Virus record (IMG/VR): IMGVR_UViG_651053022_000001
Direction: 5' to 3' (one strand)
DNA length: 28,110 nucleotides
Origin: a virus
Lineage: Duplodnaviria > Heunggongvirae > Uroviricota > Caudoviricetes
The position numbers and the translations under genes were made by a program. Shown piece by piece: positions 1,294-26,703 of the stretch. A model generated the notes under the pieces. The model was not told the DNA's origin. It made no database searches and saw only the letters and a program-made list of their open reading frames with translations. Numbering within the stretch: the first letter of the stretch is position 1; the number at the start of each line of letters is the position of its first letter.

Positions 1294-1410
1294 TACCCAA
1301 TTTTTCTGAATCTAAAAAGCGCCTGCGGGCGCTTTAAGTAGAGGTTTAATCATTTGAAAATAAATGGATTTTATTTTTAAGTGTCCATATAACGTCCATC
1401 TTTGAATGCA

Positions 1411-1450
1411 AAAAGCCCACAGCTTCTATGCTGTGGGCTTTGTTTTTTGG
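1411..1450 (+). terminator. rho-independent terminator downstream of serS
   Basis: GC stem gcccacag / ctgtgggc with 8-nt loop, followed by tttgttttttgg. A weaker hairpin (agcgcc/ggcgct) sits at about 1318-1333. Confidence 0.6.
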
Positions 1451-1470
1451 TGTCCTCATGAGTGAGGGAA

Positions 1471-1504
1471 CCAAAAAGAAAACCCGCAGTTTTTACGCTG
1501 CGGG
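1471..1504 (-). terminator. rho-independent terminator for the minus-strand hok-like transcript
   Basis: Stem cccgcag / ctgcggg; on the minus strand it is followed by ttttctttttgg. Confidence 0.45.
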
Positions 1505-1598
1505 CTTGTTGTTCACGTCAACTGGAAATAGGGTGCCTTTTCGACCTTTACCCTGGCAACCGATTGACGGGGAAGTTGCCTTCCCCGTCGCGGTTTCC

Positions 1599-1739
1599 TT
1601 ACTGCTTACACTGTAAGAACGCCGCAAACTCCGCTCCCCAGAAACTCATCCGTATTTCACACAGCGAACCGTGCAGCATCCAGATGATGAGGATTGCCGT
1701 CACGCAGAATGTGATGGCCGTAAGCGATTTTTGCGACAT
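1599..1739 (-). CDS. Hok/Gef-family type I toxin, 46 aa
   Basis: Hand-translated minus-strand ORF MSQKSLTAITFCVTAILIIWMLHGSLCEIRMSFWGAEFAAFLQCKQ: single TM helix, SLCEIR and E-x-AAF-L-x-C motifs typical of Hok proteins (closest to HokA by memory); AAGGAG Shine-Dalgarno 9 nt upstream. Below the 60-aa cutoff of the ORF track. Confidence 0.75.
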   Translation of the reverse strand: MSQKSLTAITFCVTAILIIWMLHGSLCEIRMSFWGAEFAAFLQCKQ

Positions 1740-1842
1740 AGCGCTTGCTCCTTTTTCGGGGAGGCGCTAACCTATCACTTGCTGAGGGTAGATGGTTAGG
1801 GCCTCGGGTTAACGTTAAAGTTGACTCGGGGCCTTTCCACAT
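1657..1842 (-). CDS. Mok-like overlapping reading frame (modulation of killing)
   Basis: 61-codon ORF in another frame that starts upstream of and fully overlaps the hok-like ORF, as mok does in hok/sok loci. Assignment is by position only; the sequence is not diagnostic. Confidence 0.4.
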   Translation of the reverse strand: MWKGPESTLTLTRGPNHLPSASDRLAPPRKRSKRYVAKIAYGHHILRDGNPHHLDAARFAV

Positions 1843-1930
1843 CTGGCCTTCGGGTATTCCCTCCGACCATCAGCCGAAAGGCACCCGCACGTAATCTATC
1901 GCTTTTTTGTTACTCCGGCAATTCTGCCTG

Positions 1931-2191
1931 TTAATTCTGAGATAAAGGCAAACTCATCTGATTGTTTCCCCTGTGTGAAGCTGGCAGATCATGCCACGGG
2001 ATACCTTCTGAAGAGTGAACGCCGGAGGCGTGTTTTGATGTGAATTTATGGAAAGCTTCCAGTGTTGAGAAGCATACGCCGCATTCCAGATTGTTACACT
2101 GGTAATACTTTTGCCGCACGGTGTTTGAATCATTTTCCGGACGACTGGTGCGGATACGGGCAGATGCGCCACAAAGCGGACAACGGAACAT
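1931..2191 (-). CDS. ogr: Ogr/Delta-family zinc-finger late-gene transcription activator
   Basis: MFRCPLCGASARIRTSR...YYQCNNLECGVCF matches the Cys4 zinc-finger layout of P2 Ogr; strong SD (aagggaggt) upstream; lies directly after gene D as in P2. Confidence 0.85.
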   Translation of the reverse strand: MFRCPLCGASARIRTSRPENDSNTVRQKYYQCNNLECGVCFSTLEAFHKFTSKHASGVHSSEGIPWHDLPASHRGNNQMSLPLSQN

Positions 2192-2231
2192 AGCGACCTC
2201 CCTTAACGTGGTGCTGCCTATTCTAAGTTGC

Positions 2232-3341
2232 TCACTCTGTTTCCGCTATCCATTCCGGGATTTTTGCCTCAAGCTCAAGCTGCGTGGTAAAACCGCTGTT
2301 ATCAATGGTGTGCTCGGCTTTTGCAATGATCCAGTCCTGATTATCAATCTCGCTTTTAAATCCTGTTACCGTGCCATGCATTTCGGGGTAGAGTTCTGCA
2401 CGTCCACGCGCCAGCGTGATGGAGAATGATGCGGCTCCGCGTTGTAGTTGCTGCCACTTTGCCGCCGCTGCGCGTCTTGCTGCCTGCTCGTTCTGATAAG
2501 TCTTGCGTAACACAAACACATTGCCTTCCGCGCCTTCCATATAATCACCTTCGCGGCTGCTGCTTTTCTCCTTTTTGGGTTTTGGCGGTTTACGGCGTTT
2601 CACGCTGACTTTTTTCTTTTTCCCGTAATTAAGATCAAGCCAGTAAGCGCGTACCCCCGTATACGCTTCGCGGTCAGCAATGCGGAACTGATGGCGATCG
2701 CCGCTGCTGCGTGTGATGGCAAACGATGGCAACGGCTGGCCCTGTGCGTTCACGCCACCGCCGGGCATGATGAATAACAGATTACCGCTTTTTACCGTGG
2801 TGATTGCGCCCAGCATTTCCGCCATGCGCGTAAGGAAGGACATGTCGCTTTCTTCGGTCTGGTCGGCGTGGTCGATTTCGATATCCATCAGCATTTCGCT
2901 GATTTGCGGTTTCAGACCATACCGATGAGCGATGGCGGATACCACACGCTCAACGGTCACATCATGCCAGGACACCTCACGTTTAACGTTAAATTCATCC
3001 CGAAAATCTGCGCTTCTGGCTGAAACAGTCAGCCTGTCCGGCGGTCCTTCGTGAGCGATTTCATCAACAATGTAAGTGCCTTTTTCTGTCAGCGGTTCTC
3101 CTTTCCAGCCAATGAGAACCGTCAGGCGCGCGCCCCGTGGCGGTAGCTGCAACTGACCATCCGCATCATCCAGCGTGATGGTGAGCTGGTCCGCCTCAAA
3201 TCCCCGGTTGTCGGTCAGTGACAGGCTCATCAGGCGCTCTGCCACGCCTGACAGCGTTTTACCCTCCGCGAGAATATCAAAATCCGGCATTTTCACGGGG
3301 TCTGTGCCCTGACTGAGCAATTGCATGGTGGTGTCGGTCAT
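2232..3341 (-). CDS. D: P2 gpD-like tail protein (late control protein D), 369 aa
   Basis: Length and sequence fit the phage late control D family; start chosen at internal Met (MTDTTMQLLSQ...) preceded by GGGAGGG; the track ORF extends to 3473 in the same frame. Confidence 0.85.
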   Translation of the reverse strand: MTDTTMQLLSQGTDPVKMPDFDILAEGKTLSGVAERLMSLSLTDNRGFEADQLTITLDDADGQLQLPPRGARLTVLIGWKGEPLTEKGTYIVDEIAHEGPPDRLTVSARSADFRDEFNVKREVSWHDVTVERVVSAIAHRYGLKPQISEMLMDIEIDHADQTEESDMSFLTRMAEMLGAITTVKSGNLLFIMPGGGVNAQGQPLPSFAITRSSGDRHQFRIADREAYTGVRAYWLDLNYGKKKKVSVKRRKPPKPKKEKSSSREGDYMEGAEGNVFVLRKTYQNEQAARRAAAAKWQQLQRGAASFSITLARGRAELYPEMHGTVTGFKSEIDNQDWIIAKAEHTIDNSGFTTQLELEAKIPEWIAETE

Positions 3342-3498
3342 CTGCTCCCTCCCTGTGCGGCATGGTCGCATGTGCGTGCGGAGGGGGTTACTGCTTTTTG
3401 TTGTCGCCGTGGCGGGAGAACGGCGCAGGGGTGAGATTACGCGCGTGGTGGGTGATGATTGTTGCCGAATCATTTAACGGATACAAGGGGCTGAAGCT

Positions 3499-4683
3499 AT
3501 GAGTGAAACTCGTTTTCATGGTGCCCGTGTCACGGAAAGTACCGACCTGGTAACAGCGATTAATGATGTTGATTCCAGCGTTATCGGTATCGTGGCAACG
3601 GCGGATGATGCGGATGCGGAGCTGTTCCCGCTGAACAAGCCCACACTGCTGACCCGCGTCAATGACGTGCTGGGAAAATGCGGGACTACGGGGACGCTTT
3701 ATCGTGCGCTTAAGGCTATCGCAGACCAGGTGAGCACAAAAGTGATCGTCGTTCGCGTGGCTGAACACAAAGAAGAAGGCGGTAGGACGCAGGATCAACT
3801 GGTTATCGGTGGTTCTGAATCTGACGGCAGCTATACGGGGATGTATGCGCTGCTTGTTGCAGAGCAGGATGAAAGCATCGGATACCGTCCGCGTATTCTG
3901 GCCGCGCCGGAGCTGGACACGGAGGCGGTGACAAAATCCCTGTGCGTGATTGCGGGTAAACTGCGCGCGTTTGTGTATGCCACATGTCATGGTTGTAACA
4001 CGATGGCTGAGGCGATTACCTACCGCCAGAAATTCAACGAACGTGAGGTGATGCTCTTATGGCCTGACTTCATCGCCTACAACCCGAAAAGTGGCAAAAA
4101 CGAAACGTTCCCCGCGCCTGCTTATGCGTGCGGCCTTCGTGCGTACATTGACCATGAGCAGGGCTGGCACAAATCGCTGTCCAACGTTCCGGTTAAAAAT
4201 GTGCTGGGGATGTCGAGGCATGTGTTCTGGTCGTTACAGGCCGAAGACAGTGATGCCAACAGCCTCAACAACAAAGAAATCACGACCATTATTCGTCGTA
4301 ACGGGTTCCGCTTCTGGGGCAACCGCACACCGGAAACGAACGCCTACATCTTTGAGGTGTATACCCGAACCGCACAGGTGCTGGCTGATTCAATTGCGGA
4401 AGCGCAGTTTGAAACCATCGACAGTCCACTGACGCCTGCGAACGTGAAGGATGTTATCAGTGCCATCAGGGCAAAATTGGATTCGCTGGTTACTGCCGGG
4501 AAACTGATTGGCGCGGAGTGCTGGTATGACGTGGTGGATAACGGCACCACGGATTTACGTCAGGGGCGTGTGCGTATTCGCTACAAATATACGCCCGTTC
4601 CCCCGCTGGAAGACATGGAGCTTTACCAGACGTTTACTGATGAATTCTTTGGTCCCGCATTTGCGGTGCTGGGAGGTGCCTGA
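3499..4683 (+). CDS. FI: contractile tail sheath protein (P2 gpFI-like)
   Basis: 394 aa with tail sheath family features; SD aagggg upstream; stop overlaps the FII start (TGATG). Confidence 0.92.
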   Translation: MSETRFHGARVTESTDLVTAINDVDSSVIGIVATADDADAELFPLNKPTLLTRVNDVLGKCGTTGTLYRALKAIADQVSTKVIVVRVAEHKEEGGRTQDQLVIGGSESDGSYTGMYALLVAEQDESIGYRPRILAAPELDTEAVTKSLCVIAGKLRAFVYATCHGCNTMAEAITYRQKFNEREVMLLWPDFIAYNPKSGKNETFPAPAYACGLRAYIDHEQGWHKSLSNVPVKNVLGMSRHVFWSLQAEDSDANSLNNKEITTIIRRNGFRFWGNRTPETNAYIFEVYTRTAQVLADSIAEAQFETIDSPLTPANVKDVISAIRAKLDSLVTAGKLIGAECWYDVVDNGTTDLRQGRVRIRYKYTPVPPLEDMELYQTFTDEFFGPAFAVLGGA

Positions 4684-5195
4684 TGGCTGTACCAAAACAT
4701 CTTCGCTTTTTTACGTTGTTTGTGGATGGTGAAAACGAAGTGGGTAAAGTGACATCCGTCACGCCGCCCAAACTGACGCGCAAAACCGACAGCTATCGTG
4801 GTGGTGGCATGATGGGAGCAGTAAGTATTGATCTCGGTCTGGACGACTCCGCGCTTGATGCGAGCTTTGTCATGGGGGGAGCTGTTCGTGCACTGTTCCT
4901 TAAGTATGGCGGCACGATTGACGGCACGCTGCTGCGTTTTGCGGGTGAATATTACACCGATGCAGAAAGCGATCTGTATGAAATCGAGATGCGCGGGCGT
5001 GTGACGGAAATTGATATGGGGGAGGCCAAACAGGGCGAAGCCACATCACACACTTACGCTGTCAAAAACACCTACTACAAGCTGAGCGTTAACGATCGCC
5101 CGCTGTGGGAAATCGACCTGTTGAACCACATCTACCGGAAGGACGGCAAGGACATTGTGCCTGACCGCATTCGTTCCGCGCTTGGGCTTGGCTGA
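4683..5195 (+). CDS. FII: tail tube protein (P2 gpFII-like)
   Basis: 170 aa, directly after the sheath gene with a 1-nt overlap. Confidence 0.9.
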   Translation: MAVPKHLRFFTLFVDGENEVGKVTSVTPPKLTRKTDSYRGGGMMGAVSIDLGLDDSALDASFVMGGAVRALFLKYGGTIDGTLLRFAGEYYTDAESDLYEIEMRGRVTEIDMGEAKQGEATSHTYAVKNTYYKLSVNDRPLWEIDLLNHIYRKDGKDIVPDRIRSALGLG

Positions 5196-5250
5196 TAAGT
5201 AATATGCAGGCGGCGCAGTGCGTCGCCTCTGACTGAAAAGGAGACAACTG

Positions 5251-5625
5251 ATGAAAGATATCGATACTGAAACCCGGAATAACACCGTAGCGGATGATGT
5301 GACGTCAGGTGAGGATATGGCTGTCGAACGTGGTGTAAAACTTTCCCGGCCAATTGAGCGTGGTGCCGAAAAAATCACATATGTGGAGATCACCGGGGCT
5401 ATTGAGCAGGCGGGATCCCTGCGTGGTCTGTCGCTGTCTGATGTGCTGAATCTGAAAGCGGATACCATGTTCACGCTGTTGCCTCGCGTGACCTCGCCAC
5501 GACTGGATGAAGTGATGATTAAAAAAATGTCGTCACGCGATTTTATTCAGTTGTGCGCTGTGGCTGTAAATTTTATGAGCGAGCCAGACTCTGGCGCGAA
5601 GAGCGTGCAGGAGACGGCAGCGTAA
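5251..5625 (+). CDS. E: tail assembly chaperone (P2 gpE-like)
   Basis: 124-aa ORF between tube and tape measure; AAGGAG SD upstream. Confidence 0.8.
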   Translation: MKDIDTETRNNTVADDVTSGEDMAVERGVKLSRPIERGAEKITYVEITGAIEQAGSLRGLSLSDVLNLKADTMFTLLPRVTSPRLDEVMIKKMSSRDFIQLCAVAVNFMSEPDSGAKSVQETAA

Positions 5626-5789
5626 TCACCCTGGTGTGCTTTGAGCACATCGAAGATCTGGTGGCGGATATTGCCGCCATTTTCAACTGGTCGCCCGCCG
5701 AAATCTTCATGATGACGCCCGGCGAAGTGGTTAGCTGGCGTGAGCGGGCGGCACTTCGCAGCGGGAATGCAGATAATGAAGACTCTTGA
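5251..5789 (+). CDS. tail assembly chaperone E+E' fusion by programmed -1 ribosomal frameshift (about 179 aa)
   Basis: The -1 frame is open from 5523 to 5789 and overlaps the 3' end of E and the 5' end of T; a canonical heptamer A_AAT_TTT at 5568-5574 is in the correct phase of E. Confidence 0.6.
5568..5574 (+). promoter_or_regulatory. candidate -1 frameshift slippery heptamer AAATTTT (E to E')
   Basis: X_XXY_YYZ pattern with zero-frame codons AAT TTT. The alternative TAAAAAA at 5520-5526 is less canonical. Confidence 0.5.
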
Positions 5790-8583
5790 CATCCGGGTCG
5801 CTTTCAGCGCCGTTGACAGGCTGACCCGGCCTGCCGAAAACGCCCGCCGCCTGATGGGGCAGTTTGGTGACTCCATTCAGCGAACGCAGGGGGCGATCAA
5901 AAATCTCGAGCGTCAGGCGCGTTCATTTGAGCGCGCCCGCGACGCTGTCAGTAAAGCGGATGCGGGTATCGTGAAAGCACGACGCCAGCTTAACGCCCTT
6001 AATCAGTTACAACGCACGGGTACAGTGCTCAGCGAAAAACAACAAAAGCTGATGCAGCAGTTAAGCACCCGGCTTGAACGCCTGAATGAATCGCGCACAC
6101 GGGAAATTCAGAAAATGCGGGAGCTTGGCGGAGAACTGAAACGCCACGGCATTTCCCTGACAGGCAGCGATAACACCATCCAGCAGGCCATCAGACGCAC
6201 CGAACAATACAACAACCAGCTTGAACGCGAACGGCAGGCGCTTGCGCGTGTAACGCAGGCTCGTGAGCGGTATTCGCGCGCGCAGGAAACCGCGGGAAAA
6301 CTGAAAACAGGTGGTGCGCTGGCAATTGGTGCGGCAGCGGCGGGCGGCTATGCTGCCGGGCGTTTTTTGCAGCCCGCGATCGGGTTCGGCAAAGAGATGT
6401 CCCGCGTTCAGGCGCTGACGCGAATCGACAAAAACAGCCCGCAGTTTAAGGCGCTGCGTGAGCAGGCGTTAAAACTTGGCTCTGAAACACAGTTTACTGC
6501 GAGTGATGCCGCCAGTGGGCAGAGCTTTCTGGCAATGGCTGGTTTTACTCCGCAGGCCATTCAGGCCGCATTGCCCGGTGTTCTTAATATGGCGCTGGCA
6601 GGTGGCGTCGAACTCGGCGAGACGGCTGATATAGGCTCCAATATCCTCACACAGTTCAACCTGACAGCCGATCAAATGGACCGGGTTGGCGATACGCTGA
6701 CAGCGGCATTCACCCGGACCAATACTGATTTACGCGCGCTGGGCGAAACCATGAAGTATACCGGTCCGGTTGCCGCAAAACTTGGTATCAGTCTTGAAGA
6801 AGCGGCAGCCATGGCCGGGATGCTTGCCAATAATGGTCTTCGTGGAAGCGATGCTGGTACGGCCATGCGCGCAAGTCTGTCCCGCCTTGCATCACCGCCA
6901 AAAGCTGCGGCTGATGCGCTGAAAGAGCTGGGGGTGTCAGTTGCTGACGCCAGAGGCAAAATGCGCCCGATGGAGGATGTGCTGCTTGATCTCTATAAGG
7001 CGACACAAAAATACGGACAGGTGGACCAGGTTTCCTTCTTCAAGGACATCGCCGGAGAAGAGGCGTTCGTTGGTTTGCAGACGCTTGTTGCGGCGGCTGG
7101 TTCAGGAGAGCTGCAAAAACTGACCAGAGAATTGCAGGGGGCAAGGGGAGAGGCCGATCGCGTTGCAAAAGTAATGGCCGATAATCTTGATGGGGACCTG
7201 AAAAATCTCGACAGCGCATGGGAAGGTCTTCGTATTCGCATCAGTGATCTGGTTGACGGTCCGCTGCGTTCTGTCACGCAGTGGCTCACGCGGGTGCTTG
7301 AAAAAATCACCTCGCTGGCGCAGGCCCATCCGGTACTGACGCGCCAGCTACTGATAGCAGGCGGTGCGTTGCTGGCAATGACTGCAACGGTTGGCTCGTT
7401 GTCGCTGGCTATTGGTGTGCTTGCTGGCCCGCTGGCAAAACTGCGTCTTGGCTTTTCCCTCCTGACCGGTTCAATGAATGCTGTCAGACTCCTGCCAGCA
7501 CTATGGGGAATGGTGACGGGTTCCGTTTCGTTACTGGGGGGCGCTATCGGGGCGTTGTTCAGTCCGGTCGGCCTTATCGTGGCTGCGCTTGCCGGAGCTG
7601 CCGTTCTCATCTGGAAATACTGGGATCCCATCAGGGCATTTTTTGCCGGGGTGTTCAGCGGGATTATGGAAAGGCTGACCCCGTTGCGCGAAACCTTTGA
7701 ACGGTTTGGTCCTGTTTTTGACGCAATCGGGAGTGGGATCAGCCAGGTGTTTAACTGGTTTAAATCGCTGCTGTCTCCGATGGAGTCCAGCAAGGAAACT
7801 CTGGATAAATGTACCAGTGCTGGCGAGATATTCGGTAACGTTCTTGGCGGTGCGTTACAACTTGTTCTGACACCTGCAAAAATGTTGCTGGATACGCTGG
7901 CGTGGATACTTGAAAAGCTTGGTGTGCTTCCGGATGAAGCGGAAAGGGCGCGCAAGAAAATCGAAGACGCACAGCGTGCGGCCATTCTTCAGGACAAGGT
8001 TGCCTTGCTTCAGGGGGACCTGGCGAAAATCAATCCGCCGAAGCCTGTGGAAAATGGCAATGGCACCGGAGGTGATAACCCCAAAGACAATAAACCGCTC
8101 ACAGACAGCAATACCGGTACGCTGCGCAGACTCAGCAAAATTGCTGATAACACAGGTAAGCTGGTTGAGGAGACGAAAAAACGCATTGGCCCCGGCGATA
8201 TTGTCTTTAAAAACCTGCCCCGAGCACTTGCTGTTCGTGGGGAGTGGCAGGAGCGGAAGATTGCGCAGGTCAGTAAGCCTGCCCCCGCAATTAATATCAC
8301 ACCCGTGGTCCCGGCTCCGCTGCCTCCGGCGCTGGTCCCTGTTGTTGCGGCCAGCTCCCGCCCGGTGGCGGAGGCTATACGATCTCCAGTGGCATCAGTT
8401 CCTGTAACTTCCCGTAACCGGGAGCCTGTTGCCTCCGGATTTGGTGGTGAAATTCATGTTCATCTGCATAACGTTGTTACGCAGAATCCCCGCGAACTGG
8501 CGAAACTGGTCGGTGAAATGGTCAGGGCAGAAATGGAACGGCGCGCCCGTGCCGGGCGTGGCAGTTTTTACGATAAAGATTGA
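5776..8583 (+). CDS. T: tail tape measure protein (P2 gpT-like)
   Basis: About 935 aa; coiled-coil N-terminal half, Gly/Ala-rich hydrophobic middle, position after E/E'. Start ambiguous (GTG 5740, ATG 5767 or ATG 5776). Confidence 0.9.
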   Translation: MKTLDIRVAFSAVDRLTRPAENARRLMGQFGDSIQRTQGAIKNLERQARSFERARDAVSKADAGIVKARRQLNALNQLQRTGTVLSEKQQKLMQQLSTRLERLNESRTREIQKMRELGGELKRHGISLTGSDNTIQQAIRRTEQYNNQLERERQALARVTQARERYSRAQETAGKLKTGGALAIGAAAAGGYAAGRFLQPAIGFGKEMSRVQALTRIDKNSPQFKALREQALKLGSETQFTASDAASGQSFLAMAGFTPQAIQAALPGVLNMALAGGVELGETADIGSNILTQFNLTADQMDRVGDTLTAAFTRTNTDLRALGETMKYTGPVAAKLGISLEEAAAMAGMLANNGLRGSDAGTAMRASLSRLASPPKAAADALKELGVSVADARGKMRPMEDVLLDLYKATQKYGQVDQVSFFKDIAGEEAFVGLQTLVAAAGSGELQKLTRELQGARGEADRVAKVMADNLDGDLKNLDSAWEGLRIRISDLVDGPLRSVTQWLTRVLEKITSLAQAHPVLTRQLLIAGGALLAMTATVGSLSLAIGVLAGPLAKLRLGFSLLTGSMNAVRLLPALWGMVTGSVSLLGGAIGALFSPVGLIVAALAGAAVLIWKYWDPIRAFFAGVFSGIMERLTPLRETFERFGPVFDAIGSGISQVFNWFKSLLSPMESSKETLDKCTSAGEIFGNVLGGALQLVLTPAKMLLDTLAWILEKLGVLPDEAERARKKIEDAQRAAILQDKVALLQGDLAKINPPKPVENGNGTGGDNPKDNKPLTDSNTGTLRRLSKIADNTGKLVEETKKRIGPGDIVFKNLPRALAVRGEWQERKIAQVSKPAPAINITPVVPAPLPPALVPVVAASSRPVAEAIRSPVASVPVTSRNREPVASGFGGEIHVHLHNVVTQNPRELAKLVGEMVRAEMERRARAGRGSFYDKD

Positions 8584-8595
8584 GGAGTCATGGCC

Positions 8596-9084
8596 ATGAT
8601 GATGATCTACGGCATGTTTGTTTTTGAGCTGCGCACGCTGCCGCATCAGCAGTTACAGCAAAACAAAAGCTGGCGGCATGTGAAAAATGAACGCGTTAAC
8701 CGTTCAGCAAGCTGGCAGTATATCGGTGCAGGTGATGATCGCATCGTTCTTTCTGGTGTGCTTTATCCTGAAATTACAGGTGGCGAAGTGTCGCTGTCGC
8801 TGCTGACCACGCAGGCGTATACAGGACGACCCTGGCCTTTGATTGATGGCGTCGGGCAGATTTACGGCATGTATGTCCTGACTGAAACGAATACGACCCG
8901 CTCCGAGTTTGATCGCTACGGTAAGGCGAAAAAGATAGAATTTTCACTGACTCTTGAACGCTGTGATGAGGATTTGCGGGAGCGCCTGCAATCCTCATCG
9001 TTCAGTGATATGCTGTCCGGCTTCAAAGATAAGGTGACATCATCTCTTAACAGCGCGGCCAGTTCAGTTAAAGGGCTGTTCTGA
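8596..9084 (+). CDS. U: tail protein (P2 gpU-like)
   Basis: MMMIYGMFVFELRTLPHQ... matches the gpU family; GAGGAG SD 8 nt upstream of ATG 8596 (alternative ATG 8590). Confidence 0.88.
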   Translation: MMMIYGMFVFELRTLPHQQLQQNKSWRHVKNERVNRSASWQYIGAGDDRIVLSGVLYPEITGGEVSLSLLTTQAYTGRPWPLIDGVGQIYGMYVLTETNTTRSEFDRYGKAKKIEFSLTLERCDEDLRERLQSSSFSDMLSGFKDKVTSSLNSAASSVKGLF

Positions 9085-9092
9085 TTTAACAC

Positions 9093-9129
9093 AAAAACCG
9101 CTAATGGTCAGATTAGCGGTTTTCATTTT
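9093..9129. terminator. bidirectional hairpin between U and the invertase remnant
   Basis: Stem ccgctaat / attagcgg flanked by an A-run and a T-run. Confidence 0.5.
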
Positions 9130-10013: not shown

Positions 10014-10027
10014 CCTATTTCATCCAT

Positions 10028-10058: not shown

Positions 10059-10074
10059 TAGAGGTCAACGTAGC

Positions 10075-18108: not shown

Positions 18109-18497
18109 GCAACACATTTAAATTCAGCAGCCGGAGCGAAAAGAATTTGCAGGGTGTAAATCCTGATCTGGTGAAAGTGACCCGACGGGCGCTGGAAATC
18201 TCGGAAGTGGATTTTGGTATCACCGAAGGATTGCGCAGTCGTTATCGTCAGAAGCAGCTCGTGACCACAGGCAAGAGCCAGACCATGAACAGTCGCCATC
18301 TCACAGGGCATGCCGTGGATGTTGTGGCTTATGTCGGCAACCAGGTGTCATGGGAATGGCCGCTGTACGAAAAAATCGCAGCAGCATTCAGACAGGCCAG
18401 CCAGGAACTGAATATTCCGGTGGAATGGGGCGGCGACTGGAAGACCCTGAAAGACGGACCGCATTTTCAGTTACCACACGGAGCCTATCCGGCATGA
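18105..18497 (+). CDS. endolysin, peptidase M15 family (zinc L-Ala-D-Glu / D-Ala-D-Ala peptidase type)
   Basis: 130 aa with SRHLTGHAVD and DGPHFQ zinc-ligand style motifs; this differs from the lysozyme-type gpK of P2. Confidence 0.8.
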   Translation: MSNTFKFSSRSEKNLQGVNPDLVKVTRRALEISEVDFGITEGLRSRYRQKQLVTTGKSQTMNSRHLTGHAVDVVAYVGNQVSWEWPLYEKIAAAFRQASQELNIPVEWGGDWKTLKDGPHFQLPHGAYPA

Positions 18498-18889
18498 AGC
18501 TCTGGCCCACGCTTGGCGTCGCTTTCCTTCTGATTACATCCATGCGTCTGTCGTGGTCGCTGGGCCGGGAGAACGCCAGAAACGAAGCGCAGGCCAGCAC
18601 CCTGAAAAGTACCGTCGACACACTGAATATCATCAGCGCCGGGGTACAGGATATGCAGCAGGTGCTGGCTCAGCTCCGCGCGGAAAATCAGCAACGCAAT
18701 CAGGACGGAGAGGTAAGACGTGAACAGCTACGCAACGATATTGCAAAAGATGAATGCGCCCACGCTTTGCCTGACGCTCGTTTTACTGACAGGTTGCGCA
18801 GGCACGCAGAACGCGCCAGGGCCAGCGCCGTCAGTCCGGCTTATACCGCAGACGCTGACCATGCCGGTAACGCCTCCCCCCTTCCCTGA
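18494..18889 (+). CDS. i-spanin (Rz / LysB-like)
   Basis: N-terminal TM anchor (LWPTLGVAFLLITSM) and a coiled-coil periplasmic region; start overlaps the endolysin stop. Confidence 0.7.
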   Translation: MKLWPTLGVAFLLITSMRLSWSLGRENARNEAQASTLKSTVDTLNIISAGVQDMQQVLAQLRAENQQRNQDGEVRREQLRNDIAKDECAHALPDARFTDRLRRHAERARASAVSPAYTADADHAGNASPLP

Positions 18890-19031
18890 CCCACCCACAT
18901 GGGGAAACCTCGGAATATGGGGCGACCGCCTTCTGGATGCACTGGAAACCTGTAACGCGGATAAACGGGCCATTGCTGAACTGGATAAGAGAATAGCCGA
19001 ACTGACACACCAGACGGGAGTAACACAATGA
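18750..19031 (+). CDS. o-spanin (Rz1 / LysC-like lipoprotein), overlapped architecture
   Basis: Lipobox LLTGC after a short signal peptide, Pro-rich; begins inside the i-spanin gene in another frame and extends past it. GTG 18720 is an alternative start. Confidence 0.65.
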   Translation: MNAPTLCLTLVLLTGCAGTQNAPGPAPSVRLIPQTLTMPVTPPPFPDPPTWGNLGIWGDRLLDALETCNADKRAIAELDKRIAELTHQTGVTQ

Positions 19032-21799: not shown

Positions 21800-21822
21800 G
21801 GAAGAGCAGGAGAGCAAAACAG

Positions 21823-22290
21823 ATGCTTAAGACAAACAGTCTGCGAGAGTCCATGCTTCATGGGTGTCGGTGGTGCCAGGCTAATCCCGAGAAATTCACC
21901 ATTTTCGTGGAGAGCGGCAACATTGAAACGACCGGAGAAGCGCCCTCGTTTGTTTACCGCTATCAGATGGTGATGTTTGTCATGGATTACGCCGGAGAGC
22001 TGGACGACCTCACGCTGCCGCTGCTGGCGTGGTTATCCGAAAATCAGCCACAGTTGTTGCTCAATCCGGAGCGTAATCAGGACATCAAATTTTCTGCCGT
22101 TATCAATGACGATGACAGCGCCGATCTCCTGTTTACGCTCCCCCTGCGGGAACGCGTTCGCATCACGCGCAACAGTCAGGGCACACCGCAGGCAGAACAC
22201 CTGCCGGAGCCAAAACCCCGTCTGCCTTCTTCCGAAGGCGACTGGTCGCATGTATTCCAGGATGTGACGTGGGGTGAAAGCGATGGATAA
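21823..22290 (+). CDS. R: tail completion protein (P2 gpR-like)
   Basis: 155 aa, same size and position as P2 gpR. Confidence 0.85.
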   Translation: MLKTNSLRESMLHGCRWCQANPEKFTIFVESGNIETTGEAPSFVYRYQMVMFVMDYAGELDDLTLPLLAWLSENQPQLLLNPERNQDIKFSAVINDDDSADLLFTLPLRERVRITRNSQGTPQAEHLPEPKPRLPSSEGDWSHVFQDVTWGESDG

Positions 22291-22918
22291 GGCATTCACC
22301 CGCGTGGATGAAACCTTTGAGGCTATCCGCGACAGCCTGAATCAGCAGGCCATCAATAACATCGCCAGAAAGCTGGCACAGGATTTACGTCGCGCCCAGC
22401 AGGCACGTATCCGGTCACAAAAAGCGCCGGACGGGACCGAATGGACACCACGCAGACGCCGCGTAACCCGGATACAGGAGCGCATTCGCTTTATCTGGAA
22501 TAACGAAGCACGCACGCTGAAAAACTGGCATCACGACACAGGGAAATACGGGCGAACCATTACCGGGTGGGATGAGGATAAAAACAATATCCGCACGTTT
22601 TACCGGGATGACATCGACCGTTTTCTGGAAATACGCACCCGGCGCATCAACCAGGACAGCACAAAGCGCGTCCCCATGTTCGTAAAACTGCGCACCGCCC
22701 GCTACCTGAAAGCCCGTGCAGATGCCTCCGGTGTGACGGTGGGTTACAGCGGCGTGGCCGCACGTATTGCACGCGTTCATCAGTTCGGTGAGCGCGATCA
22801 GGTTGCGCCGGGCATTTTCACCGATTACCCGGTACGTGAGCTGTTGGGTATCAGCCAGGCAGATGAGCGCCTGATTTATAACACGGTGCTGGGCCGGATT
22901 GCGGAGGCTGTACGGTGA
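22283..22918 (+). CDS. S: tail completion / virion morphogenesis protein (P2 gpS family)
   Basis: 211 aa; start overlaps the R stop; longer than P2 gpS but fits the family by position and sequence style. Confidence 0.72.
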   Translation: MDKAFTRVDETFEAIRDSLNQQAINNIARKLAQDLRRAQQARIRSQKAPDGTEWTPRRRRVTRIQERIRFIWNNEARTLKNWHHDTGKYGRTITGWDEDKNNIRTFYRDDIDRFLEIRTRRINQDSTKRVPMFVKLRTARYLKARADASGVTVGYSGVAARIARVHQFGERDQVAPGIFTDYPVRELLGISQADERLIYNTVLGRIAEAVR

Positions 22919-23496
22919 GCGCAGAACTCATGCGACTGCTGAGCAACATCATCCGCACCGGGATCATCTCTGAAGTTGATGAGAAGTCCTGGCGCGTGCG
23001 CGTTCGCAGCGGCGAACTGGAAACAGGCTGGTTGCGCTGGAACACCACGCGCGCGGGAGCCTTCAATGTGTGGCTGCCGCCATCACCAGGCGAACAGGTG
23101 GTAATTGCCTGCATTGGCGGCAACCCGGAAACCGCCATGATAATTGGCAGCCTGTGGAGTGATGCCAGTCCGGCCCCCGGCAAAAGCCTGAAAGAAATCG
23201 TGGTCAGCGCGCCGGATGGCGCGGTGTTCCGCTACGACGCAGACGCTGGCGCACTGAGCGCCAGCGGCATGAAAACAGCCACCCTGCAGGCATCCGTCAG
23301 CGTGACACTGGATACGCCCGTCGTGGAATGCACAAACCTTCTGAGAACGGCGACGCTTGACGTCACAAAAGAGGGAAAGATGAGCGGCAATATCACGCAC
23401 AGCGGCGGCAATTTCACCTCAAACGGCATTACCGTGCATACGCATAAGCACGGTGGCGTTAAAGGTGGCAGCGATTCGACAGGAGGCCCGCAGTGA
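22915..23496 (+). CDS. V: baseplate assembly protein V / spike (P2 gpV-like)
   Basis: 193 aa; overlaps the S stop. Confidence 0.85.
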   Translation: MSAELMRLLSNIIRTGIISEVDEKSWRVRVRSGELETGWLRWNTTRAGAFNVWLPPSPGEQVVIACIGGNPETAMIIGSLWSDASPAPGKSLKEIVVSAPDGAVFRYDADAGALSASGMKTATLQASVSVTLDTPVVECTNLLRTATLDVTKEGKMSGNITHSGGNFTSNGITVHTHKHGGVKGGSDSTGGPQ

Positions 23497-23843
23497 CAAC
23501 CCGCTACACAGGAATGAACCCGGACGGGACGGGAAACCTGAACGATATGGAGCACCTGAAACAGTCAGTCAGGGACATCCTGATCACCCCGCTGGCAAGC
23601 CGGGTTATGCGACGGGAATATGGCAGCCTTGTGCCTGATTTGATTGACGAACCCATGAATAACACCACGCGTCTGCAATGCATGAGTGCTGCCGTGATTG
23701 CGCTGACACGATGGGAACCCCGCATTGCCCTGGACGCCATCGACGTTGTCTGGAAGGCAGGAGGCCGCGCCGGGGTGACGCTGTCGGGCACTGTCATGCA
23801 GACCATGCAGAATGTTGAATTAACCATCACGCTGAGAGAGTAA
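23493..23843 (+). CDS. W: baseplate protein W (gp25-like)
   Basis: 116 aa; overlaps the V stop. Confidence 0.88.
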   Translation: MTTRYTGMNPDGTGNLNDMEHLKQSVRDILITPLASRVMRREYGSLVPDLIDEPMNNTTRLQCMSAAVIALTRWEPRIALDAIDVVWKAGGRAGVTLSGTVMQTMQNVELTITLRE

Positions 23844-23846
23844 ATC

Positions 23847-24743
23847 ATGCCTGCTGTTGATCTTTCCCAGTTACCGGAACCCGCCATCATCGCGGAGCCT
23901 GATTTTGAGGCAATTCTGGCTGACACAAAGGCCATGATGATTGCGTCCTATCCTGCCGAACAGCGTGAAGCCGTCTCCGCCGCGCTGGAGCTGGAATCAG
24001 AACCCCTGAACGTTATCGCTCAAACCATGTCGTTTCGTGAAATGCTGTTACGCCAGCGGGTTAACGAGGGCGCACGCGCCTGCATGTTAAGCCACGGTTC
24101 AGGGACAAACCTGGACAACCTCGCGGGCAATATGAACACAAAGCGCCTGGTTATCACTCCGGCAACGGATACCACCGACGCGGTGATGGAGAGCGACACC
24201 TCGCTGAGACTGCGGGCGCAGCGGGCGTATGACGGCCTGAGTGTTGCTGGCCCGTCAGGTGCATACGAGTATTTTGCACGCAGCGCCAGCGGTCTGGTGC
24301 GTGATGCGCGGGCCATCAGCCCGTCTCCGGCCTGTGTGACGGTTTCCATTCTGTCCACTGAAGGCGACGGCACAGCAACGGAGGCGTTGCTTAATACCGT
24401 TCGCGCCGTTCTGAATGCAGAGGATACCCGCCCGGTGGCCGACCGACTGACCGTACAGAGCGCCAGCATCGTGACATGGCGGCTGAATGCAAAACTGTAC
24501 TTTTACCCCGGCCCGGAATCCGAACCTATTCTGGCTGCGGCTGAATCGTCGTTCAGGAAGTGGCTGGCTGAGCAGGGGCTTATTGGTCAGGACGTGGCGT
24601 TGTCAGCCATTGCTGCCGCACTTCATGTGCACGGCGTGCAACGCGTGGAGATAATCGAACCCACACAGAATATGGCCATCAGCGACATACAGGCGGCGCG
24701 CTGTGAGTCATTCACCATCAGCGAAGGTGGGCGTAATGAGTAA
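23847..24743 (+). CDS. J: baseplate assembly protein J
   Basis: 298 aa, P2 gpJ-like in size and position. Confidence 0.9.
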   Translation: MPAVDLSQLPEPAIIAEPDFEAILADTKAMMIASYPAEQREAVSAALELESEPLNVIAQTMSFREMLLRQRVNEGARACMLSHGSGTNLDNLAGNMNTKRLVITPATDTTDAVMESDTSLRLRAQRAYDGLSVAGPSGAYEYFARSASGLVRDARAISPSPACVTVSILSTEGDGTATEALLNTVRAVLNAEDTRPVADRLTVQSASIVTWRLNAKLYFYPGPESEPILAAAESSFRKWLAEQGLIGQDVALSAIAAALHVHGVQRVEIIEPTQNMAISDIQAARCESFTISEGGRNE

Positions 24744-25266
24744 TTCACTGTTACCGCCATCAGCCAGCAATTTCATGCGTTGCGCCGAAGCTGTCGGAGC
24801 GCGCATTACAGACATCCCGGTAGACCTCAACACGCTGTGGTCACCGGACACCTGCCCGGTGCATCTGCTGCCTTATCTCGCCTGGGCATTTTCCGTTGAC
24901 CGCTGGGATCGCAACTGGCCGGAAGAGACAAAGCGACAGGTGATTCGTGATGCATGGCTGATACACCGACACAAAGGGACCATCAGCGCACTGCGCCGGG
25001 CCATTGAGCCGCTGGGATACCTCATTCGCGTGTCTGAGTGGTGGGAGTTCGGCGGAGAACCGGGAACATTTACCGTTGAAGTCGGCACGCTGGACAGTGG
25101 CGTGACGGAGGAAATGTATCTGGAAATGGAGCGGTTGATTGCTGATGCCCGCCCGGTCAGCCGCCACATGACAGGGCTGAATATCATTCAGGAGATTCAG
25201 GGAGATATTTTCGCGGCGGCAGCAACTTACGACGGCGAAGTCATTACCATTTATCCGGACGATTAA
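24736..25266 (+). CDS. I: baseplate / tail protein I
   Basis: 176 aa from ATG 24736, which overlaps the J stop; same length as P2 gpI. Confidence 0.85.
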   Translation: MSNSLLPPSASNFMRCAEAVGARITDIPVDLNTLWSPDTCPVHLLPYLAWAFSVDRWDRNWPEETKRQVIRDAWLIHRHKGTISALRRAIEPLGYLIRVSEWWEFGGEPGTFTVEVGTLDSGVTEEMYLEMERLIADARPVSRHMTGLNIIQEIQGDIFAAAATYDGEVITIYPDD

Positions 25267-25268
25267 GC

Positions 25269-26504
25269 ATGAGTACCACAACACGTAAATTTAAAACCGT
25301 TATCACCGATACGGGTGCCAAAAAATTAGCTCAGGCAGCCGCGCCAGATGGTAAGCCTGTCCGCCTGACTCATATGGCCGTGGGCGACGGTGGCGGCACG
25401 TTGCCCACACCAGACAGTAAGCAGACCCGTCTGGTGCATGAGGTGTGGCGACATACTGTTAATCGCGTCATCCTGGACGCAACACATCAGAACCGCATTA
25501 TTGCGGAGCTGGTTATTCCTCCTGAAACGGGCGGATTCTGGATCCGGGAAATTGGTGTATTTGATGAGCACGGCGATTTAATCGCGGTGGGCAATACTGC
25601 CGAAAGTTACAAGCCAGCCGTTGCCGAAGGGTCCGGTCGTGCACAAACATTTCGCACCATTCTGACCGTATCCAGCACTGCCACCGTGGTGCTTACCGTG
25701 GATAACACCATGGTGATGGCCACAGTGGATTACGTGGATGACAAACTGAAAGAGCATGAACAGTCACGACGTCACCCGGACGCCTCGCTGACCGCAAAAG
25801 GCTTTGTTCAACTCAGTAGCGCCACTAACAGCGTGTCTGAAACGCAGGCTGCAACGCCGAAAGCAGTAAAGGCCGCGTATGACCTTGCTAACGGTAAATA
25901 TACTGCGCAGGATGCCAGCACGACGCGAAAAGGCCTTGTCCAGCTCAGTAGCGCCACCAACAGCGTGTCTGAAACGCAGGCTGCAACGCCGAAAGCAGTA
26001 AAGGCCGCGTATGACCTTGCTAACGCAAAATATACCGCTCAGGACGCCACGACGGCACAAAAAGGGATAGTCCAGCTCAGTAGTGCCACCAACAGCACGT
26101 CTGAAACACTGGCCGCGACATCGAAAGCTGTTAAGGCGGTAATGGATGAAACGAACAAGAAAGCGCCCTTAAATAGTCCTGCACTGACCGGAACGCCAAC
26201 AACACCAACTGCGCGACAGGGAACGAATAATACCCAAATCGCAAGCACGGCTTTCGTTATGGCTGCGATTGCCGCCCTTGTAGATTCGTCACCTGATGCA
26301 CTGAACACGCTGAACGAGCTGGCTGCGGCGCTGGGCAACGACCCGAATTTTGCGACCACCATGACTAACGCGCTTGCGGGTAAGCAACCGAAAGATGCCA
26401 CCCTGACGGCGCTGGCCGGACTTACTACTGCGGCAGGCAAGTTTCCGTATTTTACGGGGAATGATGTCGCCAGCCTGGCAACCCTGACAAAAGTCATTTA
26501 CTAA
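25269..26504 (+). CDS. H: tail fibre protein H, N-terminal (constant) portion only; probably C-terminally truncated
   Basis: 411 aa versus about 669 aa for P2 H; contains three 44-aa tail-fibre repeats; stop codon is immediately followed by AT-rich non-phage DNA and gnd. Confidence 0.85.
   Translation: MSTTTRKFKTVITDTGAKKLAQAAAPDGKPVRLTHMAVGDGGGTLPTPDSKQTRLVHEVWRHTVNRVILDATHQNRIIAELVIPPETGGFWIREIGVFDEHGDLIAVGNTAESYKPAVAEGSGRAQTFRTILTVSSTATVVLTVDNTMVMATVDYVDDKLKEHEQSRRHPDASLTAKGFVQLSSATNSVSETQAATPKAVKAAYDLANGKYTAQDASTTRKGLVQLSSATNSVSETQAATPKAVKAAYDLANAKYTAQDATTAQKGIVQLSSATNSTSETLAATSKAVKAVMDETNKKAPLNSPALTGTPTTPTARQGTNNTQIASTAFVMAAIAALVDSSPDALNTLNELAAALGNDPNFATTMTNALAGKQPKDATLTALAGLTTAAGKFPYFTGNDVASLATLTKVIY
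25797..26192 (+). repeat. three tandem 132-bp (44-codon) repeats inside H
   Basis: Repeated unit encoding G-x-VQLSSATNS-x-SET-x-AAT-x-KAVKA..., with near-identical DNA at 25800, 25932 and 26064. Confidence 0.75.
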
Positions 26505-26703
26505 AGCATTTCGATGGCATATAAGGAGTATTACGCGCTACATATTACGGAAACCAATTCTTTCTTATAAAAACTATAGAAAAATTACATCCGAACTGGT
26601 AAAGTGATTAAATAAAGTCCTAATTTTACTACTGAAATGGTATCTTTATTTAAAGATCTTTGCTTTATATACCAATTTTTTAACGCCCTGACAGGAGTAA
26701 ACA

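Follow-up and report, generated by a model that had tools for sequence, protein, structure and literature searches.

The DNA between serS and gnd in the 28,110 nt viral sequence examined here (IMG/VR record IMGVR_UViG_651053022_000001; the window) is, judged by sequence comparison, part of a P88-like prophage (Xuanwuvirus, Peduoviridae) carried by E. coli ST131 strains between serS and dmsA. Its arrangement is due either to a real terminus-spanning inversion that split the prophage and the O-antigen cluster, or to an assembly error. A real illegitimate rearrangement, an event of an ordinary kind with unusual breakpoints, is modestly favoured and predicts that the half of the prophage carrying the integrase and replication genes lies beside the O-antigen cluster.

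Genomic context of the window

The window was mapped by blastn to the annotated genome of E. coli ST131 strain 4/4, used as the reference, and its whole length was found to match E. coli ST131 genomes at 99.99–100% identity. Positions 1–9668 correspond to the plus strand of strain 4/4 (99.99% identity), 9666–20071 and 20966–26495 to the minus strand (about 100%), and 26496–28110 to the gnd region (100%). All bases of the interval between the two host genes (1294–26703) align with annotated features of strain 4/4, with four SNPs in about 25 kb and no indels.

Both flanking genes are complete, as stated in the preliminary description. The serS gene (1–1293, + strand; 774–2066 in the L001 coordinates of the reference) encodes a full-length product of 430 aa with Pfam Seryl_tRNA_N and class II core domains, and gnd (gndA; 26704–28110, + strand) a full-length product of 468 aa with NAD_binding_2 and 6PGD domains. 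Each is 100% identical to the gene in ST131 genomes. That description was also right that the two genes are far apart in E. coli, as they are located at 0.949 Mb (serS) and 2.286 Mb (gnd) in strain 4/4, a separation of 1.34 Mb. The different host synteny that it offered as one explanation is contradicted, as serS, gnd and the phage DNA are 100% ST131 and the serS-prophage junction is common to 303 genomes in which the order is serS, prophage, dmsA.

The bare layout of host gene, late phage genes and host gene, with no integrase or replication genes, could also belong to a cryptic prophage that decayed long ago in a lineage whose natural gene order places serS beside gnd. This is highly improbable, as serS and gnd were not close together in any of the complete E. 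coli genomes examined (5,426), both flanks match ST131 at 100% and the right one starts partway through an O-antigen gene. The retained genes include no pseudogenes, insertion sequences, deletions or divergence beyond the four SNPs relative to the intact prophage, and the only damaged genes are the four cut at the junctions described below. The term remnant, in the sense of decay, is therefore not appropriate for genes that match an intact, recently active prophage. Comparisons with ST131 genomes refute both a different host synteny and a decayed remnant, and these candidates were rejected.

Phage genes retained in the window

The window holds about two-thirds of a P88-like prophage, with 96–97% identity to P88, 520873 and P884B11 across the shared half of the query. 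All of the P2-type modules (Q,P; O,N,M,L,X; lysis; R,S,V,W,J,I,H; FI–U; D; ogr) were identified by Pfam and one-to-one mapping, including the opposed FI–U block typical of the genus, which P88 carries on the strand opposite to H and D. Strain 4/4 carries the entire prophage, in which int, C, cox, A and parM are located beside dmsA. In the window, the attachment core AAAGCGCCTGCGGGCGCTTT (1316–1335), which is the serS terminator hairpin, is the only att copy, whereas the reference has a second copy of this 20-mer, between int and dmsA (L001 40746).

The interval between serS and gnd includes no integrase, C repressor, cox or replication genes (A, B), as previously noted, and no tRNA genes. The additional claim that it contains only phage late genes and cargo does not hold, as the 208 nt at 26496–26703 are from the O-antigen cluster; the other non-P88 DNA (20072–20965) is from a different, lambdoid, prophage. 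No insertion sequences or long inverted repeats were found in the window, and its sole recombinase gene is a truncated tail-fibre invertase gene. As int, cox, A and the second att site are all missing, the window carries part of a prophage and this part is unable to excise or replicate, in agreement with the earlier view.

The arm next to serS includes a hok/gef-family toxin gene (1599–1739, − strand; reference annotation and an NCBIfam HokA-like match) as cargo, an intact gene for the late-gene activator ogr (1931–2191, − strand; Pfam Ogr_Delta, 5e-14, and reference annotation) and an ORF for the tail/baseplate hub protein gpD (2232–3473, − strand; Pfam Phage_GPD, phrog_52). The gpD homologue in P88 is 366 aa, which would correspond to 2232–3332. 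The tail block of FI (sheath), FII (tube), E, E', T (tape measure) and U (3499–9084, + strand; Pfam and reference annotation) has the same strand relative to D as in P88. It is followed by nt 45–600 of a Gin/Cin-type serine invertase gene (9113–9668, − strand; blastn map, Pfam Resolvase and HTH_7). The first 44 nt, and hence the start codon and the catalytic Ser9, are missing; the full-length reference translation begins VLIGYVRVSTNDQ.

Beyond the invertase gene are codons 1–116 of 165 of a DUF4760 gene (9666–10013, − strand; Pfam and reference map), the ORF of which continues to 9630, out of frame, inside the invertase gene. A hypothetical cargo ORF (10737–11261, + strand; reference annotation, phrog_5091 in PHROGs) has the cos region probably upstream of it, at about 10240–10420, though a search for the P2 cos sequence found none. 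Genes for the portal Q (11276–12322, − strand) and the large terminase P (12322–14073, − strand) were assigned from the reference annotation and the P88 gene order. The head genes O (scaffold), N (capsid), M (small terminase), L and X (14228–17782, + strand) are 100% identical to the reference. They precede a lysis cassette (17785–19031, + strand; Pfam and reference annotation) encoding a holin, an M15 endolysin, a LysB-like protein (DUF2570) and LysC. An esterase cargo gene, described below, is followed by the tail completion and baseplate genes R, S, V, W, J and I (21823–25266, + strand; reference map) and by codons 1–409 of 740 of the tail-fibre gene H (25269–26495, + strand; Pfam Phage_tail_fib and Phage_fiber_2).

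The truncated H ORF stops at 26504, after two foreign codons. The adjoining sequence is the last 112 nt of the 792 nt glycosyltransferase gene of the O25b cluster next to gnd (26496–26607, + strand; reference map), which is probably wbbL-like; the fragment gave only weak glycosyltransferase matches in NCBIfam. A 96 nt spacer separates it from gnd.

Non-homologous junctions

Junction A (9666–9668) joins the invertase gene to the DUF4760 gene (reference 958440, + strand, to 977285, − strand) with a 3 bp overlap, TCT. Junction B (26495/26496) joins H to the last O25b glycosyltransferase gene (reference 961350, − strand, to 2287266, − strand) with no shared bases. Together, A and B cut four genes mid-ORF, those for the invertase, DUF4760, H and the glycosyltransferase. 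As the parental sequences share 3 bp at A and none at B, and there is no insertion sequence at either, homologous recombination between repeats does not account for them. Neither junction was found in the 5,426 complete E. coli genomes; further scans were negative in metagenome and viral contigs for A, and in genome and metagenome contigs for B. Neither the DUF4760 nor the H fusion product is on record, and a search for the reciprocal junctions, which lie outside the window, did not find them.

The preliminary description had overlooked that the 16.8 kb head, lysis and baseplate block is inverted relative to the tail block, that non-homologous joints bracket the invertible tail-fibre segment, and that a third junction lies within the esterase cargo gene.

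This third junction, J3 (20071/20072), is the left joint of an 894 bp in-frame insert (20072–20965, + strand) in a NanS-p-like sialate O-acetylesterase gene (19028–21799, + strand; Pfam DUF1737, SASA, SASA and DUF6645) that encodes 923 aa, whereas the reference allele encodes 625 aa. The insert is 100% identical to codons 42–339 of the esterase gene of a lambdoid prophage in the same ST131 genomes (in strain 4/4, from 1456554), and cost the recipient gene no sequence. J3 is non-homologous with 0–1 bp of homology, so that homology at all three junctions is at most 3 bp. One of its breaks is at the exact first base of identity between the esterase paralogues, and the right end of the insert merges into a 52 nt stretch identical in both genes. 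The insert looks like a product of one-sided homologous repair, with homology on the right and end joining on the left. J3 likewise had no match in the 5,426 complete E. coli genomes, nor in genome and viral contigs; the 923 aa esterase is not on record, and no homologue with two SASA domains was found among 5.8 billion protein clusters.

Relationship of the junctions to the invertible tail-fibre segment

In the reference, the crossover sites of the invertible tail-fibre segment are TTATTTAAAACC-TC-GGTTTACGAGAA and TTCTCGTAAACC-GA-GGTATTCGATAA, centred at about L001 10552 and 13300, and the joints correspond to L001 10441 and 13351. A and B therefore bracket the segment, and the missing piece extends 111 nt and 50 nt beyond its two sites. 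This piece, a 2.9 kb element, consists of the invertible segment, both crossover sites and short flanks. Switching of the tail-fibre segment has been observed inside single ST131 isolates (bioRxiv 10.1101/2022.05.07.487787). The breaks at A and B are off the central dinucleotides and formed no hybrid sites, and no crossover-type site or half-site is left in the window, so the link between the breakpoints and the invertase is positional only.

The inferred 1.33 Mb inversion

The arm from att through hok, ogr, D and FI–U to the invertase gene is in its native position next to serS. The 15.9 kb block that runs from H' back to DUF4760' lies in reversed orientation and is joined to this arm at A, and its far end is joined at B to wbbL'-gnd, normally 1.33 Mb away and in the opposite orientation. 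The first proposal, that a prophage sits at the joint of a large rearrangement, is borne out by sequence comparison with ST131 genomes.

The simplest history would be two inversions, one of 18.8 kb within the prophage (reference 958441–977285) and one of 1.33 Mb (961350–2287266), but one event that caused breaks at all four of these points would account for the layout just as well. If the two inversions were independent, it would be unexplained that each has one of its ends beside the invertible segment. As both phage-side breaks are just outside crossover sites, the most likely cause would be breakage tied to the segment, followed by limited trimming and then by homology-independent end joining, with the esterase insert arising by one-sided homologous repair. 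The invertible segment and the early, replication and integrase genes would then be found at the other end of the inversion, beside the remainder of the O-antigen cluster, and the last O-antigen glycosyltransferase gene would be split. The half in the window would be unable to excise, replicate or make tail fibres, but would retain ogr, the late operons, the lysis genes and the cargo genes.

The implied inversion spans dif (1681697 in strain 4/4) with arms of 720 kb and 606 kb, so that dif would be displaced by 115 kb and the replichores, in strain 4/4 coordinates, would stay balanced. A random partner would be equally balanced about dif about 4.5% of the time. Such an inversion is of a tolerated kind. 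Of 222 complete ST131 genomes, 26 were reported to differ in synteny, in most cases by one inversion centred on ori or ter (PMC11739808), and rrn operons have served as the inversion repeats in ST131 wound isolates (bioRxiv 10.1101/2022.05.07.487787).

Alternative origins of the junctions

The absence of any independent occurrence of A, B or J3 in the collections searched, together with fusion proteins that are unrecorded, counts against a real rearrangement. So does the number of unique non-homologous joints, as three within 28 kb that otherwise equals the reference is high for a single natural isolate. E. coli is not known to have a dedicated NHEJ pathway and end joining is rare in this species, which also argues against it. 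The main alternative, though less probable, is that the sequence is chimeric, arising by an assembly, scaffolding or finishing artefact or another in silico join, and the true chromosome has an intact prophage between serS and dmsA and gnd in its usual place. Each junction is unique to the window in 5,426 genomes and two contig collections, every joined piece is 100% identical to another site in the same ST131 genome, and four genes are cut mid-ORF at joints sharing 0–3 bp, all of which speak for a chimera. The phage-side breaks also lie directly beside the invertible segment and the esterase paralogue, which in ST131 cultures are of the heterogeneous or repeated type that is hard to assemble, and two of the five segments beyond the breakpoints are repeated elsewhere in strain 4/4. 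However, graph-based misassembly joins sequences through shared k-mers, whereas these joints share at most 3 bp and bypass repeats. Random chimeric joins are not expected near crossover sites or where paralogue identity begins. Two random breaks 111 and 50 nt from the sites would have a chance of roughly 1e-5 in a 40 kb prophage, a figure that does not allow for the choice of feature, and random chimeric reads would not be expected to place the third break precisely at the start of paralogue identity. A near-symmetric inversion around dif with the distant partner and the very high base accuracy (four SNPs, no indels) also speak against a chimera.

Within the favoured illegitimate rearrangement, a single catastrophe is an unlikely sub-case. 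The invertase, or a Gin-like enzyme of a co-resident Mu-like prophage, would have cut both crossover sites without religation, the segment would have been lost and the ends trimmed by 50–111 nt, and the chromosome would have been rebuilt by end joining and one-sided homologous repair, with A, B and J3 simultaneous. One event would then account for both A and B beside the same 2.9 kb element, and the missing piece is exactly the invertible segment with both sites and short flanks. The form of J3 also fits a broken end that invaded the paralogue while the other end was joined without homology (HFIR, PMC3240628). However, at least 4–5 simultaneous double-strand breaks would be needed, at 977285, 2287266 and 1456554 as well as at both sites, and a scan that covered only 977285 of these three saw no crossover-like sequence nearby, the closest core match being some 440 nt distant. 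Abortive cleavage by Gin/Cin-type invertases is not known to rearrange chromosomes in vivo, and the window is compatible with mere relocation of the segment as well as with its loss.

Comparison with known systems

The ST131 serS-dmsA prophage ('Entero_P88', bioRxiv 10.1101/2022.05.07.487787) uses the same att at the serS terminator and has genes 99.99–100% identical to those in the window, and Escherichia phage P88 (NC_026014; Xuanwuvirus, Peduoviridae) has the same genes at 96–97% identity. Both share with the window the FI–U block opposed to D and H, hok, ogr and the Gin-type invertase. Missing from the window copy, relative to the P88-like prophage, are the invertible segment, G, the C-terminus of H, the 3' end of the DUF4760 gene and the entire early, replication and integrase arm. 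Its 15.9 kb late block is inverted, and its esterase gene has a second SASA domain.

The Mu G and P1 C segments are about 90% identical to the missing piece, and the Gin/Cin/Hin segments of Mu, P1 and P7 likewise have 26 bp sites of the same consensus and an adjacent serine invertase gene. However, the joints in the window are 50–111 nt from the crossover dinucleotides and join unrelated DNA, and are therefore not products of site-specific inversion. In the P88-like prophage of E. coli F2_407_2_2 (NZ_CP074756.1), the late and early block is flipped directly after the invertase gene, giving the same order, FI–U to Q-P-O...H, as in the window. That inversion lies within a complete prophage and is bounded by two IS26 copies, whereas the joints in the window have no insertion sequence or repeat.

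Homology-independent joining and joining with one-sided homology are documented in E. coli (PMC3240628, PMC3375238, bioRxiv 10.1101/605246). J3, with 52 nt of identity at one end of the insert and 0–1 bp at the other, and A and B (3 and 0 bp) are comparable to such homology-facilitated illegitimate recombination and native end joining. Those precedents concern linear DNA entering the cell or breaks made by engineering, whereas the donor and recipient at J3 are two prophages on one chromosome and the recipient sequence was kept. Published inversions centred on ori or ter, in ST131 and other bacteria, that have a resolved mechanism use repeats (rrn, IS elements, prophages), unlike the partners in the window, which lack homology, but the inversion inferred here would, like them (Molari et al. 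2025, PMC11739808; Eisen et al. 2000, cited therein), be megabase-sized and near-symmetric and would keep gene orientation with respect to replication.

Origin of the DNA in the window

The serS (1–1293) and gnd (26704–28110) genes, described as complete in the preliminary description, are both full length, with the window opening at the ATG of serS and closing at the stop codon of gnd, and no tRNA genes were found in the window. Pfam analysis of the interval between them identified P2-family proteins for head, tail, baseplate and lysis, together with a DUF4760 protein and the C-terminal part of a serine recombinase.

The window was compared by megablast with 5,426 complete E. coli genomes, a collection that includes four ST131 genomes (NZ_CP107117, CP124372, CP107184 and CP107182) for which double or translocated inversions are reported. 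At least 80% of window 1–2300 (serS, hok, ogr and the start of D) was found in one place in 303 genomes, and this segment matches many ST131 chromosomes at 100% identity. The gnd end (26496–28110) likewise matches, at 100%, the region of these strains that holds the O25b glycosyltransferase gene and gndA, and by sequence identity the comparison shows the window DNA to be that of E. coli ST131. None of the 5,426 genomes includes the window as a whole, or a sequence spanning 26495/26496 or 9666–9668. A different natural gene order in the host, one of the explanations offered in the preliminary description, is effectively excluded, as is an old decayed remnant.

In the ST131 strain 4/4 (NZ_CP023826.1), relative to which the window has 4 SNPs and no indels, the phage is an entire prophage flanked by serS and dmsA. 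The gene order is hok, ogr, D; FI-FII-E-E'-T-U; the invertase gene; an invertible tail-fibre segment; H, I, J, W, V, S, R; an esterase gene; lysis genes; X, L, M, N, O, P, Q; and then cargo, parM, replication endonuclease A, early genes, cox, C and int. A 20 bp core, AAAGCGCCTGCGGGCGCTTT, corresponding to the serS terminator, is found at both ends of this prophage, and the window retains only the serS-side copy (1316–1335). The phage is P88-like (genus Xuanwuvirus), sharing 96–97% identity with P88, 520873 and P884B11. The FI-U block is oriented opposite to D and H, but an old invertase-mediated inversion was rejected as the cause because P88 itself has this order. The gpD reading frame (window 2232–3473; 3005–4246 in the strain 4/4 serS-dmsA prophage locus) is open for 413 codons, and D of P88 is 366 aa. 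Only an 801 nt 'VgrG/Pvc8 family' gene and a small pseudogene are annotated for this region of ST131 in RefSeq, and the short call is probably an annotation artefact, not a truncation.

Five segments of the window map to the strain 4/4 chromosome. Window 1–9668 corresponds to reference 948773–958440 (+ strand, 99.99% identity), 9666–20071 to 977285–966880 (reverse strand, 100%), 20072–20965 to 1456554–1457447 (+ strand, 100%), 20966–26495 to 966879–961350 (reverse strand, 3 SNPs), and 26496–28110 to 2287266–2285652 (reverse strand, 100%). The third of these comes from another esterase gene, at 1456431–1458284 in a lambdoid prophage. Two of the four SNPs (25965–25966) are inside a pair of tandem 132 nt Phage_fiber_2 repeats (89% identical; window 25796–26059) within the tail-fibre gene H.

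In strain 4/4, gnd is on the other strand and 1.34 Mb from the prophage site, consistent with the statement in the preliminary description that serS and gnd are far apart in E. coli-type chromosomes, and this mapping indicates that a large rearrangement with a prophage at the junction was the right reading. All bases of the interval are accounted for on the reference, and none falls in a gene for integration, immunity or replication, which confirms the reported absence of such genes. The claim that the interval holds only phage late genes and cargo needs amending, as its final 208 bp belong to the O-antigen cluster and 894 bp originate in a different prophage.

The junctions

At junction A (9666–9668), nucleotide 45 of the invertase gene is joined to codon 116 of the DUF4760 gene with a 3 bp overlap (TCT), and the invertase has lost its start codon and Ser9 of the YVRVSTNDQ motif, the residue established as catalytic in Gin and Hin. 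At junction B (26495/26496), codon 409 of H is joined to nucleotide 681 of a 792 nt glycosyltransferase gene with no overlap. No homology, IS elements or repeats were found at the junctions. A break associated with cos was considered for junction A and rejected, as the P2 cos sequence is absent and the likely cos region, ~650 nt from A, is retained. One arm of an 18 nt imperfect inverted repeat (CTGGCAACCCTAAAACAA and CTGGCAACCCTGACAAAA, on opposite strands; 11289–11306 and 13354–13371 in the strain 4/4 prophage locus) lies 3 nt away from breakpoint B; with 3 mismatches, the repeat is at chance level.

Junction A cuts the DUF4760 gene and parts it from an ORF for a 280 aa product. These belong, with a phrog_5091 ORF, to the cargo between Q/cos and the par genes (window 9630–11261; 28939–30318 in the strain 4/4 prophage locus), a position that is a frequent home of defence genes in P2-like phages. 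The 280 aa product belongs to phrog_12528 and has a weak Csx27-like PADLOC match (1e-5), and the defence-system search matched no known system in the DUF4760 cargo region.

The third joint, J3 (20071/20072), is within the NanS-p-like esterase cargo gene (19028–21799; insert 20072–20965), where codon 348 of the prophage's own gene is joined in frame to codon 42 of the lambdoid-prophage gene. The lambdoid-derived stretch extends to the start of identity between the two genes (window 20966–21017), after which the prophage's own sequence resumes. The break in the latter is at the last base before this identity begins, which is where a strand-exchange intermediate between the two genes would stall. 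The product is a 923 aa ORF with the arrangement DUF1737-SASA-SASA-DUF6645, in which the insert supplies the second SASA catalytic domain and is 100% identical to the lambdoid-prophage esterase found 0.49 Mb away in ST131. No counterpart with this arrangement was found among 5.8 billion protein clusters, and matches of 912 and 917 aa were rejected as homologues, each being a single-SASA fusion. Two chimeric esterases in NCBI (P0045 and P0060) were likewise set aside as products of unrelated events. Chimeric esterase genes in the public assemblies GCA_053292605.1 (8001–10049 of the locus) and GCA_025750815.1 (5751–8420 of the locus), where the fusions are of a nitrate-reductase-like N-terminus with SASA-DUF6645 and of DUF1737-SASA with tail-fibre domains, indicate that this family is often involved in fusions, or in misassemblies.

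Exact searches recovered no match to junction A in metagenome or viral contigs, to junction B in genome or metagenome contigs, or to J3 in genome or viral contigs; none of the predicted reciprocal junctions was found in viral contigs, and exact look-ups gave no record of the three fusion proteins. Megablast with pieces spanning the junctions was negative in the 5,426 genomes as well. Five segments from beyond the breakpoints, searched as a concatenate in strain 4/4, were found in 7 places rather than 5, two of them being repeated, though the search does not assign which two. A truncated invertase product of 130 aa occurs in 392 blocks of the protein collection but was rejected as support for junction A. 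In the one assembly translated (GCA_046372085.1; 9794–10393 of the locus), the product arises because the invertase gene is disrupted at its 5' end (...GINK*QNTDL compared with ...VSTNDQNTDL), and the layout is otherwise normal in all six places shown. Many strains may therefore already have lost the ability to switch tail fibres.

Breakpoint placement and the implied rearrangement

The invertible segment in the reference is flanked by 170 nt inverted repeats and includes two 26 bp sites of the Gin/Cin/Hin type, TTATTTAAAACC-TC-GGTTTACGAGAA and TTCTCGTAAACC-GA-GGTATTCGATAA. The phage DNA absent between A and B (reference 958441–961349) is the entire invertible segment with flanks of 111 nt and 50 nt. 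Two random breaks in a 40 kb prophage would produce such a placement with a probability of ~1e-5, before allowing for post hoc choice of the feature, and the breakpoints are not random. The invertase itself was rejected as the maker of the junctions, as the joints are 111 and 50 nt from the crossover sites, off the crossover dinucleotides, and no half-site is present in the window, indicating that this is not a product of site-specific inversion. In the phage collection, homology across the invertible region has no boundary that coincides with the breakpoints.

When the reference is divided into S1 (to 958440), S2 (958441–961349, invertible), S3 (961350–977285), S4 (977286–2287266) and S5 (the rest), the order in the window is S1, S3 reversed and the start of S4 reversed. 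Two inversions, of S2+S3 (18.8 kb) and then of S2'+S4 (1.33 Mb), would generate S1-S3'-S4'-S2-S5, and a single event with several breaks, in which S2 was lost, would generate S1-S3'-S4'-S5. The window fits both alike. On either history, the arm with the early, replication and int genes is predicted to be 1.3 Mb away, beside the remainder of the O-antigen cluster. With dif of strain 4/4 at 1681697, the arms of the large inversion are 720 kb and 606 kb, hence dif would be shifted by only 115 kb, and equal symmetry is expected from a randomly chosen partner in ~4.5% of cases. Altered core synteny has been found in 26 of 222 complete ST131 genomes, mostly as single inversions centred on ori or ter (PMC11739808), and the large inversion is of a type tolerated in nature.

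Rearrangement or chimeric assembly

On balance, we consider it somewhat probable that the window records a real illegitimate rearrangement of the P88-like prophage. That it is a chimeric assembly appears less likely, though three unique non-homologous joints within one 28 kb stretch, the lack of any independent occurrence of these joints in the collections searched, and the rarity of end joining in E. coli all count against a real event. Tail-fibre segments of three ST131 prophages also switch within single isolates (bioRxiv 10.1101/2022.05.07.487787), making the region hard to assemble, which counts on the same side. However, neither random chimeric reads nor misjoins in a k-mer graph explain the relation of the breakpoints to the features beside them, and the overlaps are only 0–3 bp, with repeats skipped rather than traversed. 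The symmetry of the inversion around the terminus and the small divergence from strain 4/4 (just the 4 SNPs) also argue for a real event, as does a related prophage in strain F2_407_2_2 with a natural internal inversion that starts right after the invertase gene, though this is flanked by IS26. Homology-independent and one-sided-homology joining are, moreover, documented in E. coli (PMC3240628, PMC3375238, bioRxiv 10.1101/605246). Undetermined or engineered origins account for what probability remains.

If the rearrangement is real, one conceivable reading is that a phage tail-fibre invertase, or an invertasome on its segment, broke both crossover sites in a lysogen, and that the cell survived by homology-independent rejoining. 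In one step, this would have yielded a 1.33 Mb inversion spanning the terminus, a split and immobilised prophage, a knockout of an O-antigen glycosyltransferase gene and, via one-sided homologous repair, a sialate esterase with two catalytic domains. Such a common origin is improbable, but if true would make prophage DNA-inversion systems a source of large illegitimate rearrangements of the E. coli chromosome.

Predicted properties and significance

By analogy with P2, the stranded half would be unable to excise, as it lacks int and cox and has a single att site, or to replicate, as it lacks A and ori. Any particles would be without tail fibres because H is truncated and G is absent, and the invertase would be dead, its 5' end having been lost. 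The ogr gene, late operons, lysis cassette, hok and the enlarged esterase gene are intact, and the late genes and cargo could be expressed if Ogr were made locally, if a co-resident P2-like prophage provided it, or through Delta of the P4 type.

At junction B, just 112 nt from the 3' end of the O25b glycosyltransferase gene (window 26496–26607) remain next to gnd. This gene is presumably wbbL, and it has weak generic NCBIfam matches only. With this last glycosyltransferase gene of the O25b cluster split, the O antigen should be lost or altered, and we infer that this could plausibly give the large inversion a selective advantage under phage or immune pressure.

If the event is real, the strain is probably rough as a result of this split, which bears on serotyping, phage susceptibility and vaccines. 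It would also represent a clean, natural, repeat-free, replichore-balanced inversion of megabase size in a pandemic clone, with half of an otherwise active prophage stranded together with ogr, lysis genes, hok and the esterase gene, all open to activation by a P2-like phage or P4-like satellite in the same cell. The placement of the breaks next to the invertible segment would then indicate an undocumented cost of phage inversion systems. If the window is instead an artefact, it warns that invertible segments and paralogous prophage genes can yield chimeric 'complete' sequences that resemble novel islands between core genes.

The element is an already known prophage, and an inversion-split prophage is an ordinary type of event. 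The lack of homology at the joints, the placement beside an invertible segment and the templated in-frame esterase insert are unusual, and these rest on a single sequence. The invertible segment in the reference is ~90% identical to the G segment of Mu and the C segment of P1. The P88-like prophage of F2_407_2_2 (NZ_CP074756.1) is at another chromosomal site, and ogr and D are separated in it by an inserted ParA gene. Its natural internal inversion of ~20 kb, which starts directly after the invertase gene, is bounded by two copies of IS26 (15740–16444 and 36976–37680 of the locus), unlike the joints in the window.
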